Origin: Octopus sinensis
Taxonomy: Eukaryota
Direction: 5' to 3'
DNA: 17,880 nucleotides
Assembly (NCBI RefSeq): GCF_006345805.1
Contig: NW_021824728.1
Span: 1-17,880, forward strand
Under the pieces are notes generated by a model, which made no database searches, was not told where the DNA came from, and saw only the letters and a program-made list of their open reading frames with translations. A program made the position numbers and the translations under genes. Position 1 is the stretch's first letter; each line of letters begins with the position of its first letter. Of the stretch, positions 5,371 through 10,388 are shown piece by piece.

Positions 5371-5630
5371 CTGAAAATTAACAAATATACAGCATAATAA
5401 GATGTGTTACATTTATCACAAAACCATTTCACAGATATATACCCTTGGTCATCAATATATATCATAATCATATGGAATATTATGAAATAGTATAGAAGAA
5501 TTACCTTTAATTCCTTTATATATATATATAATAATTATTTGAGGGAATATTATTCCTAACTTACAGGGAAAAATTCAATTTAGAAATACTAAATCAAATT
5601 TCACAAAATATTATATATATATATATATAT

Positions 5631-5922
5631 AAATTAGAAAAAAAACACTTTTATCAATTCAAAATGAACAATTAAATTATACCATCTATAAAATTACATA
5701 TAATAGAAATATTGAAATTAAAATAACAATAATATACCGATGATTAAGTAAATTGCAAAATAATAATAAAAACGTATATATACATTTTTATTATTATTTT
5801 GCAATTTACTTAATCATCTGTATTTTATTGTTATTTTAATATTTCTATTATATGTAATTTTCTAGATGGTATAATTTAATTGTTCATTTTGAATTGATAA
5901 AAGGTGTTTTCTTTTCTAATTT
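5631..5922. repeat. Near-perfect, loopless ~290-bp palindrome embedded in (TA)n
   Basis: 5631-5778 is the reverse complement of 5779-5922, with a few mismatches and one 6-bp indel. The centre is GTATATATAC and both flanks are (TA)n. Confidence 0.92.
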
Positions 5923-5936
5923 ATATATATATATAA

Positions 5937-6193
5937 AAAATAGTGTACATTTAAACATAAGAGAAAACTACCTTTAACGGGTAATTTTTACATGCTAGAA
6001 GTAGCCAAAATGACCAAAACCACATTTAATAGCAATTTTCGAAGGAAAGCAAAAATATTACTATTAAATGTTTTGGAAGGAAATGAAAAAATTGCTCTTA
6101 AATGTGGTTTTGGTCGTTTTGGCTACTTCTTCTAATGTGTAAAAATTACCTGTTAAAGGTAGTTTTCTCTTGTGTTTAAATGTACACTATTTT
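5937..6193. repeat. Long inverted repeat (~103-bp arms, ~48-nt spacer)
   Basis: AAAATAGTGTACATTTAAACA...AGCAATTTT (5937-6039) pairs with AAAATTGCT...TGTTTAAATGTACACTATTTT (6088-6193). Confidence 0.9.
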
Positions 6194-7540: not shown

Positions 7541-8830
7541 CATGTATTTTTATTTTTGCAGTTTTATTGTTTGTCTATGCCAGAAAAAAGGCTTTTTCGT
7601 TCGTCCTCTTGTGTTTGTTTTTGTACATGTATTTTAATTTTGCAGTCTATTGTTACGTCTTGTCTGTGTTCGTACTCATTGTGCCCCGCTGCTTGAAATT
7701 TTATTTTAATTCTCTCGCAGGAAGGCCTATTGGATTAGTGTTCTGTTATGCCTTCGAAACATGCCTGACTCCTTTAGCGACAGCTGATGACGGGGGTTTT
7801 GTCCTTGTGTAGCTCGTCCTGTATTTGTTTTTCGTTTTCCGTTTTCTTGTTTTTTGTTTTTTGGCTTTTTCCGTTTCTACGTCTTATTGTGATGTCCTGT
7901 ACTCCCGTATAATTATTGATATATGCATGTATATATACATGTAGATGTAGGTACGTACATATATGTTTGTATGTATGCATATATTTTTATTTATCTCCTT
8001 ATTGTCTGACAGCGCCCCGCATCAGGTTCGTTCCGATTCGTCGTTTCGATCCACTTCTTGGTCCCCTTTTTTATATTTATATTATTATATTGAAGATGCG
8101 GTACTCTCTCCCTTTGCTTTAACCTCTTCAATCTTTCTCCCTCCCCCTCCTCCTCTCTCTTCGCCGCGTGTCCCCCTCCTCCTTCCCTCTTCTTGCCTAT
8201 AAAACAAAATTCCTTTACACGTGGTTCCCACTATTAAAAGACTGCCTCCACACGCTGCTACTACACTTCGTCCTTGCCAGCAAAAGGCTTCTTCGTTCGT
8301 CCCCTTGTGTGGTTGATTTCCTGTATAGTATTCTTGTTATTTTCTCGTTTTGTAACTAATTGTACTTTTTGTACATGTATTTTTATTTTTGCAGTTTTAT
8401 TGTTTGTCTATGCCAGAAAAAAGGCTTTTTCGTTCGTCCTCTTGTGTTTGTTTTTGTACATGTATTTTAATTTTGCAGTCTTATTGTTACGTCTTTCTGT
8501 GTTCGTACTCATTGTGCCCCGCTGCTTGAAATTTTATTTTAATTCTCTCGCAGGAAGGCCTATTGGATTAGTGTTCTGTTATGCCTTCGAAACATGCCTG
8601 ACTCCTTTAGCGACAGCTGATGACGGGGGTTTTGTGTCCTGTGTAGCTCGTCCTGTATTTGTTTTTCGTTTTCCGTTTTCTTGTTTTTTGTTTTTTGGCT
8701 TTTTTCCGTTTCTACGTCTTATTGTGATGTCCTGTACTCCCTTATAATTATTGATATATGCATGTATATATACATGTAGATGTAGGTACGTACATATATG
8801 TTTGTATGTATGCATATATTTTTATTTATC
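7541..8830 (+). mobile_element. (TA)n-flanked element with partial tandem structure: ~455-bp direct repeats (7541-7995, 8374-8830), period ~833 bp
   Basis: Two near-identical copies are separated by a ~378-bp pyrimidine- and CpG-richer spacer with a TATA-like CCTATAAAA (~8196-8204). (TA)n lies on both sides. Family not identified. Confidence 0.8.
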
Positions 8831-9518: not shown

Positions 9519-9856
9519 GCAGGTGTGGCAGTGTGGTAAATGGCTTGCTTACCAACCACATGGTTCCAGGTCAGTTCCACTGCGTGCCACCTTGGACAAG
9601 TGCCTTCTAATATAGACTCGGGCCGACCAAACACTTGTGAGTGGATTTGGTAGACAGAAACTGAAATAAGCTCATCGTATATATTTGTAAGTCTGTGTTT
9701 GTCTCCCCCACCCACCATTGCTTGACAACCAATGTTGGTGCATTTACCTCCCTGTAACGTAATGGTTTGGCAAAAGAAACTGATAGAATAAGTACTAAGA
9801 TTAGAAAGAATAAGTCCTGGGGTTGATTTGCTCAACTAAAGGTGGTGCTCCAGCAT
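9519..9856 (+). mobile_element. tRNA-derived SINE, nearly full length, diverged
   Basis: Head GTGGCAGTGTGGTAA (box A-like) and CCTTGGACAAGTG body are shared with 5088-5244. The 3' part GGGGTTGATTTG...GGTGGTGCTCCAGCAT is shared with other fragments in the window. Confidence 0.85.
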
Positions 9857-9907
9857 ATAAATTAGAACAAAAAAAAGAGAATATATGATGATGATTATTA
9901 TATATAT

Positions 9908-10340
9908 CACGTGATCACGTGACCGACCAGACCATCAGATGTAGTTACACATCGCTGGTCACAATGTGCTTCACATTGTTTTAGTTTTCGAATGATGCCA
10001 CCCCGCTGGCTAAGCGAGCAGGCCAACAGAAGAAAGAGTGAGAGAAAGCTGTGGCGAAAGAGTACAGCAGGGATCACCACCATCCCTGCCGGAACCTTGT
10101 GGAGCTTTTTAGGTGTTTTCGCTCAATAAACACACACAACGCCCAGTCTGGGAATCGAAACCGCGATCCTACGACCGTGAGACCGCTGCCCAAACCACTG
10201 GGCCATTGCGCCTCCACTGGAATGCTTACAGCACCTAAGTTTCCCAAGCGGTCACCATCTAAGTACTAACTAGGCTCGATGTTGCTTAACCTCGGTGATC
10301 GGACGAGAACCGGTGCTTTCAACGTGATATGGCCATAAGC
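9908..10340 (-). mobile_element. Composite SINE: 5S rRNA + tRNA-derived head + body, flanked by a 13-bp direct repeat
   Basis: Minus strand order: 5S (10340-10222), a short linker, a tRNA-like head (box A TGGCCCAGTGG, box B GGTTTCGATTCCC, ~10217-10140), and a ~230-bp body ending in (CACGTGAT)2. TTATTATATATAT occurs at both 9895-9907 and 10341-10353. Confidence 0.75.
10222..10340 (-). rRNA. 5S rRNA: Full-length 5S rRNA-derived sequence (probably retroposed copy / SINE head rather than an array gene)
   Basis: Reverse complement: GCTTATGGCCATATCACGTTGAAAGCACCGGTTCTCGTCCGATCACCGAGGTTAAGCAACATCGAGCCTAGTTAGTACTTAGATGGTGACCGCTTGGGAAACTTAGGTGCTGTAAGCAT. It shows the metazoan 5S hallmarks (CTCGTCCGATC, GTTAAGC, TTAGTACTT, TGGGAA), and helix I pairs. 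It has an apparent 1-nt deletion in box C and no oligo-T terminator. Confidence 0.92.
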
Positions 10341-10341
10341 T

Positions 10342-10388
<47 letters not shown>

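Follow-up and report, generated by a model that had tools for sequence, protein, structure and literature searches.

A 5S rRNA–SINE fusion in Octopus sinensis is likely one of several hundred one-off chimeric retrocopies and not a new SINE family

Chimeric retrogenes of the human genome were reportedly described by Buzdin et al., and the octopus tRNA-derived SINEs OK, OR1 and OR2 are said to go back to work of Ohshima and Okada from 1994. As a class, chimeric retrocopies with U6 are known from mammals, platypus and anole. Doucet et al. argue that retroposition of small RNAs is restricted to chimeras in genomes whose LINEs depend on a 3' structure of their own (PMC4476161). The R2 reverse transcriptase is reported to jump between separate templates in vitro after non-templated addition (PMC8857657), and a template switch from the SINE to 5S has been proposed as the origin of composite SINEs with a 5S and a tRNA part (PMC4824008). 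A SINE family in the SINEBase definition comprises at least 100 interspersed copies (PMC3531059); the family definitions applied here were taken from the pertinent parts of PMC3531059, PMC5786205, PMC7245038 and PMC4494074.

The window, i.e. the whole stretch of DNA analyzed here (17,880 nucleotides), is one entire contig (C1199) of a 2.72-Gb genome assembly. The initial annotation had described a 5S rRNA and a tRNA-like SINE head inserted as one unit, and had considered either an undescribed SINE subfamily or 5S genes located directly upstream of a SINE. In its tested features the unit is a chimeric retrocopy (Buzdin/Doucet group IV; Table 1). It is likely one of several hundred separate one-off fusions and not a new SINE family; this genome-wide pattern, of which the window holds one case, had been missed.

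Table 1. Features of the 5S–SINE fusion unit, in window coordinates, listed in the 5' to 3' direction of the unit.
Feature	Position	Strand	Remark
Upstream copy of 13-bp target-site duplication	10341..10353	-	Adjoins edge of (TA)n run
5S rRNA retrocopy, full-length, 118 nt	10223..10340	-	Rfam RF00001 match
Linker TTCCA, 5 nt	10218..10222	-	Equals first five bases of the 3' trailer of the real 5S gene L021
tRNA-like SINE head	10140..10217	-	Begins where free copies begin; 3' limit approximate
SINE body	10026..10139	-	Common to three tail variants of the window's SINE family
Subfamily-specific 3' tail	9908..10025	-	Predicted hairpins, terminal CACGTGAT repeat
Downstream copy of 13-bp target-site duplication	9895..9907	-	

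The 5S part covers positions 1-120 of the RF00001 model (10340-10223, minus strand; 100.4 bits, E 2.6e-21, Rfam). It starts at 5S nucleotide 1 and is full-length as annotated, with 118 instead of ~119 nt, one G of box C being deleted near 10255. A deletion in box C is expected to weaken the type 1 promoter. The copy is identical to the nearest gene-like copies at 115 of 118 positions, carries a base change at 5S position 50 and lacks the upstream motif of 5S genes. The head of the unit is 5S-derived with at least 60% identity over 60 nt, as in SINE3-type elements. The few bases noted between the 5S and the tRNA-like head are the 5-nt linker, which likely represents a partly trimmed precursor end. 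The SINE partner is whole, with 310 bp (10217-9908, minus). Its head contains the A-box-like (10205-10195) and B-box-like (10162-10151, both minus) motifs recognized before, but neither ARAGORN nor Rfam calls a tRNA in it, and no host tRNA gene of origin was found among the loci retrieved; a tRNA origin of the head would be indicated by these two motifs. TTTT is absent throughout the 433-bp unit (9908-10340), including the border between its halves, and the final two letters of the (CACGTGAT)2 tail overlap with the target-site duplication. The same 13-mer does bracket the unit; its one other occurrence in the window is on the opposite strand, at 5534. It is of low complexity, as had been cautioned, yet this fits the habit of the window's SINE subfamily: among 13 full-length free copies, 3 have non-repetitive duplications of 11-12 bp starting with ATA, another 5 are flanked by TA-run duplications, and the remaining 5 lack a duplication. 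The SINE part differs by 5.4% from the nearest of 20 free copies compared. Its 3' tail is likely LINE-derived; no partner LINE was present upstream of the 30 tail copies inspected. Where an empty site was looked for, assembled contigs from three runs end within the repeats, and a raw run contributed a single read. It is very likely that 5S and SINE entered as one retroposed unit, in agreement with the initial annotation. With no daughter copies and a damaged box C, the window copy is likely a dead end.

Elsewhere in the window a type B SINE (the letters A-E are labels made for this analysis) is located on the plus strand at 9519-9856 and ends about 40 bp from the tail of the fusion unit; further fragments of types B, D and E are distributed across the window. 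Positions 7541-7995 and 8374-8830 form a 458-bp direct duplication with 98% identity, which is either a recent local duplication or an assembly artefact. At 5609-5942 we noticed a long MITE-like inverted repeat with 118-nt arms (86%) and an inner palindrome. Matches to Rfam microRNAs in the window were discarded as microsatellite noise, and no protein-coding gene was evident among the window's 4 ORFs of at least 110 aa.

We searched the genome for the 27-nt junction exactly and with up to 3 mismatches. It occurs once exactly, and the single other match, with 3 mismatches, carries another 5S gene type. The initial annotation had suggested this search and had named a unique junction as the outcome that contradicts a SINE subfamily; this is the outcome we obtained. 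An initial junction search, in which 40 of 1,816 candidates were scored, yielded 30 loci with 5S joined to several different elements. The strict 5S-head pattern with any linker of up to 20 nt gave 5 matches, whereas the head motif of the window's SINE type has at least 22,189 free copies. The 3' partner as such shows the traits of a SINE, with this number of head matches, 1,505 exact matches of the subfamily's tail motif, A and B boxes and duplications. Fifteen loci join 5S to the window's head type; no two of their linkers are alike, and three tail variants are used. Overall, 89 of 92 junctions are distinct, and TTTT is present in 26 of the 92. When the 8 fusions with the window's tail were placed in a tree, they interleaved with 19 free copies and a single clade was rejected (p-AU 0.0006). 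For a four-copy subgroup (L003, L007, L008, L009) monophyly was not rejected (p-AU 0.48); these loci have four different linkers and cluster with three free copies. Copy counts for any one junction (1 exact, 5 strict, 15 with any linker, all lower bounds) are therefore far below the 100 copies of a SINE family, and neither the junctions nor the tree show the uniform chimeric structure of descendants of one master. A new SINE subfamily with a common junction was thus rejected by the unique junction, the differing linkers and the rejected monophyly.

A 27-nt 5S motif has 234 exact matches in the genome and 815 with up to 2 mismatches. We read the first 100 of the 234 exact matches in genome order (contigs C1-C8). 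Of these, 88 are fused in sense to the start of a SINE or to the 3' end of a LINE or SINE, with partners of at least five types; one fused pair is a local duplication and was counted twice. In 76 of the 100, one of six partner-start motifs follows within 45 nt in sense, compared to none in antisense and to 17 of 3,000 random windows (about 0.6%), so that the small RNA immediately precedes a retroelement of like orientation on its 5' side. A further 12 have at their start a repeat that recurs in at least 2 other loci; of the rest, 10 are unfused and 2 unexplained. The 76 partners comprise 30 type B SINEs, 26 type D tails, 9 type C SINEs, 7 of type E and 4 of type A, the type found in the window. 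Applying the 88% of the exact-match sample to all 815 matches, we extrapolate a number of about 700 fusions genome-wide. The upstream gene motif was found in 7 of the 10 unfused copies versus 2 of the 90 others, all 10 unfused copies end in T runs, and among 109 non-gene copies 77 have their first base within 5S nucleotides 1-4. The start points and the rarity of the upstream gene motif indicate that the fused 5S copies have an RNA origin. The fusions appear to be independent, as seen from the distinct junctions and from the chimeras interleaving with free copies; free partner copies far outnumber the chimeras. About nine in ten motif-annotated "5S genes" in this genome are likely retrocopies.

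The likely real 5S genes are located in small scattered clusters, some of them inverted (L021, L088-L090, L092, L103; C4 about 131.8-135.8 Mb, C5 about 50.22 Mb), with no single uniform tandem array in the assembly. Most have a common AT-rich upstream motif, and each has its own 3' trailer. In three related organisms, loose ends of contigs also show 5S trailers running into SINE heads.

To characterize the linkers, the sequence following 5S position 119 in the 109 non-gene copies (90 of the sample and 19 of the junction search) was compared with the trailers of the unfused copies, 10 in number. It agrees with a gene trailer over at least 5 nt in 69 of the 109 (shuffled mean 6.1, max 15) and over at least 8 nt in 35 (shuffled mean 0.2). 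Variants of the 5S 3' end track the trailer type, so body and trailer stem from the transcript of one gene. Since the linkers copy 3' trailers of real 5S genes, precursor 5S RNA was likely captured; that mature 5S lacks the trailer is deduced from the end of the Rfam model. Of 62 trailer matches, 49 end in T, and the window's own linker ends in A, so that a model of U-end pairing is only partly borne out. Capture of U-ended Pol III RNAs alone is contradicted by the fusion of 10 of 48 U2 matches. A-run or A-rich linkers were noticed in 5S loci L003, L005, L046, L106 and L113 and in SRP locus L294; they may be tailed (oligoadenylated) intermediates, and small RNAs are reported to be post-transcriptionally adenylated in human cells (PMC12811392).

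There is an association between the type of trailer and the family of the partner (p 0.002 by permutation), and two pairs of type B fusions share an identical junction. Both observations stand against full INDEPENDENCE, and a few small masters are conceivable; simultaneous activity of a gene and a SINE is the simpler reading of the association. The 10 type B fusions with the commonest trailer do not form one clade (p-AU 0.011, weak tree), and the tree subgroup enriched for them also contains free copies and other trailers. Because a group of B fusions shares one trailer type and two pairs share a junction, one might regard the roughly 700 fusions as independent trials of the step from which 5S-headed SINEs are proposed to arise, of which at least one is now self-copying, i.e. 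a SINE3-type family at birth with the window as a failed trial. We regard this as quite unlikely.

Next to the junctions, target-site duplications bear on the question of one insertion or two. An unanchored search over 720 nt was null, with 3 non-repetitive duplications in 109 copies versus 2.8 expected. For an anchored test (threshold at least 8 nt) the partner tail was located in 78 of the 109 copies. Of the 78 units, 22 are surrounded as a whole by a duplication (null 6.2, max 13), which is non-repetitive in 4 (null 0.43, max 2); around the SINE or other partner alone it was found in 1 of 78 (null 0.8). In the window's family the numbers are 8 of 11 for the whole unit and 0 of 11 for the partner alone. 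A single duplication around the whole unit, typical of chimeric retrocopies, is thus present in the window (13 bp) and in 22 of 78 units by the anchored test. In 56 of the 78 no duplication of at least 8 nt was detected. Long duplications are missing from most units of types B and D, and they are rare also around free B copies (1 of 10); free copies of the sister tail variant have a duplication in 15 of 19 cases.

A young 5S-D fusion at L048 (1418-1600) has a 5S identical to a gene at 118 of 118 positions. The contig of one run follows its left flank to the 5S start and continues for 159 letters of other sequence. Two runs proceed into the 5S; the run that seems to lack it bears the same organism label as one of these two. 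This may point to an empty allele, and an insertion polymorphism is possible.

Regarding the partners, type D corresponds to the last ~50 nt of a LINE: among 30 free D copies (of 1,705), 10 share a common upstream body encoding RVT_1, and 19 are the bare ~50-nt LINE tail. Likewise 7 of 30 free copies with the window's (A1) tail start at about window position 10025. Both strongly recurrent 5' truncation points lie at the base of a predicted hairpin and may be stops of the reverse transcriptase or sites of RNA cleavage. Beside the LINE end, L190:1543-2505 holds a 320-aa open frame. By eye we take it to contain a motif resembling a GIY-YIG endonuclease, possibly of a Penelope-like kind. The partner SINEs may be the octopus families OK, OR1 and OR2.

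The pattern is not special to 5S, as U6, SRP RNA and U2 behave alike. Classed by eye, 14 of 25 SRP RNA matches are fused to the partner elements found with 5S (10 gene-like, 1 ambiguous), as are 10 of 48 U2 matches (36 gene-like, 2 ambiguous) and, among the 30 U6 matches listed, 20; 18 other U6 copies lie in one tandem array. The U6 motif has 469 matches in total, compared to 815 for 5S. At L133-L152 (C1 about 141.83-141.96 Mb) more than 20 copies of a variant U6 gene are arranged in tandem with 1.1-1.4 kb spacing. Two U2 fusions (L331, L332) retain the gene's 3' extension and likely represent capture of pre-U2.

We think that these independent chimeric retrocopies were probably made by template jumping of a LINE reverse transcriptase onto precursor 5S RNA. 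In the window, the LINE enzyme would have bound the 3' tail of the SINE and primed at a TA-rich nick, as tail and duplication suggest. Copying would have proceeded to the 5' end of the SINE, which begins where free copies begin, followed by a presumed end-to-end jump to a 5S RNA with part of its gene-specific trailer, the part that the linker matches. The 5S would then have been copied to nucleotide 1, where the unit starts, and the site sealed with the 13-bp duplication that is present. The overall route would be target-primed reverse transcription from the partner's 3' tail and a jump to the free 3' end of the small RNA. The LINEs of this genome are likely "stringent", i.e. dependent on a 3' tail of their own; this would account for the entry of small RNAs into the genome almost solely as passengers. 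By analogy this would fit the stringent-LINE argument of Doucet et al.

An alternative with the same outcome is that the 5S precursor is ligated to a SINE or LINE RNA, for instance by the cellular enzyme RtcB, before retroposition. Ligation predicts identical sense, full-length, single-duplication anatomy and is described for human U6/L1 (PMC6789731), and the recurring start points of tail-only partners (19/30 D; 7/30 A1-tail at about 10025) are conceivable cleavage sites with a 5'-OH. However, according to PMC6789731, RtcB requires a 5'-OH together with a 2',3'-cyclic phosphate, ligation dropped sharply with a 5' triphosphate, and U1, U3, U5 and 5S normally have no cyclic phosphate ends. The window's partner and 43 of the 76 partners begin at the SINE head, whose 5' end is likely a Pol III 5' triphosphate; since RtcB ligates triphosphate poorly, the jump is favoured. 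The 5S 3' ends are moreover ragged along the trailer. RtcB ligation therefore fits head-start partners poorly and is still viable for tail-only ones, and from DNA alone the two routes are not separable, least of all where the partner has an internal start (33 of 76). For the set as a whole we regard ligation as unlikely.

The remaining explanations concern the order and origin of the two halves. A true double-headed family, whose members would all derive through transcription and copying from a single master carrying both Pol III promoters, would agree with the lack of TTTT and the intact A and B boxes of the window unit, with the at least 15 loci joining 5S to the window's head type, and with the existence of AmnSINE1-type families (PMC4824008, PMC4494074). 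It is nevertheless highly improbable in view of the unique junction, the 5 strict matches against at least 22,189 free heads, the differing linkers and the rejected monophyly. In addition, the TTTT in 26 of 92 junctions would stop Pol III. Equally improbable is a two-step history, in which a 5S pseudogene was joined at its 3' end by a later SINE, through chance or targeting: the high density of SINEs in this genome and the lack of a long duplication in most units would speak for it, but two steps predict that the junction letters are repeated after the tail, which was found in 1 of 78 units, i.e. at background level. Moreover, the orientation is always sense (76 versus 0), partner-free dispersed 5S targets are nearly absent (2 unexplained in 100), and the left flank of L048 runs into other sequence in one run and into 5S in two. 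Read-through at a real 5S gene with a SINE immediately downstream, the other initial proposal, is consistent with a linker that is genuine 5S-gene downstream sequence. It did not hold up, however, as all 10 unfused copies run into T tracts and none into a SINE (100 of 234 exact matches read), and as the trailer of a single gene occurs in many lengths and next to many partners, an outcome impossible for a fixed locus; we consider it extremely improbable.

For 5S-headed SINEs, an origin by template switch has so far been a hypothesis drawn from finished families, as presented in PMC4824008. This genome holds the raw fusion product hundreds of times, nearly always without descendants, which suggests that the fusion step is not limiting for new 5S-headed SINEs. 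What limits new families thereby becomes askable: terminators are present in 26 of 92 junctions, and promoters decay. The set also bears on the choice between jump and ligation, since RtcB is a poor match for whole SINEs and for RNAs that lack a cyclic phosphate. Its linkers are a record of the 5S genes active in the germ line and of the extent to which their precursors had been trimmed.

Among known systems, the U6 chimeras of platypus and anole with L2, RTE, Mon-1 and AnolisSINE2 (Doucet et al. 2015, PMC4476161), as portrayed in the sections on these chimeras, are similar in that a small RNA lies 5' of a LINE or SINE in sense, stringent-LINE genomes hold either genes or chimeras, duplications are short or absent, and several LINE clades are involved. 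In contrast, the main donor here is 5S (815 versus 469 U6 motif matches), in addition to SRP RNA and U2; the term "5S rRNA" is absent from the text of that paper. Platypus U6 heads are almost all 5'-truncated, whereas most 5S heads here are near full length, gene-specific precursor trailers are kept, hundreds of copies compare to 40 in platypus, and the host is an invertebrate. Human U6/L1 and 5S/L1 retrogenes, as characterized in parts of Law and Burns (PMC11838501) and Moldovan et al. (PMC6789731), likewise combine two RNAs per duplication-flanked insertion, and U6/L1 is full-length and sense as here. Human 5S/L1, however, is frequently antisense and truncated near positions 46 or 90 (PMC11838501), while 5S is whole, 3'-extended and always sense here; snRNA-Alu chimeras are described as very rare, while whole-SINE partners are the majority here. 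AmnSINE1-type DeuSINEs, SINE3, HaSE3 and CoeSINE5 share a 5S head 5' of a tRNA-type SINE, going by the descriptions in PMC4824008, PMC4758252, PMC5786205 and PMC7245038. They are uniform high-copy families with one master, in contrast to junctions that all differ and no amplification seen here. Crocodilian SINEU-2 with 5' additions of U1/U2 (Kojima 2015, PMC4494074) is alike in its multiple independent additions, several subfamilies and variable junctions, according to the part describing it, but comprises 26 copies of one SINE family, compared to an extrapolated several hundred with at least five partner types. A search of openly accessible literature found no paper on 5S chimeras in cephalopods. 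New in the genome investigated here are the full-length sense pre-5S heads, the whole SINE partners, the scale and the invertebrate host.
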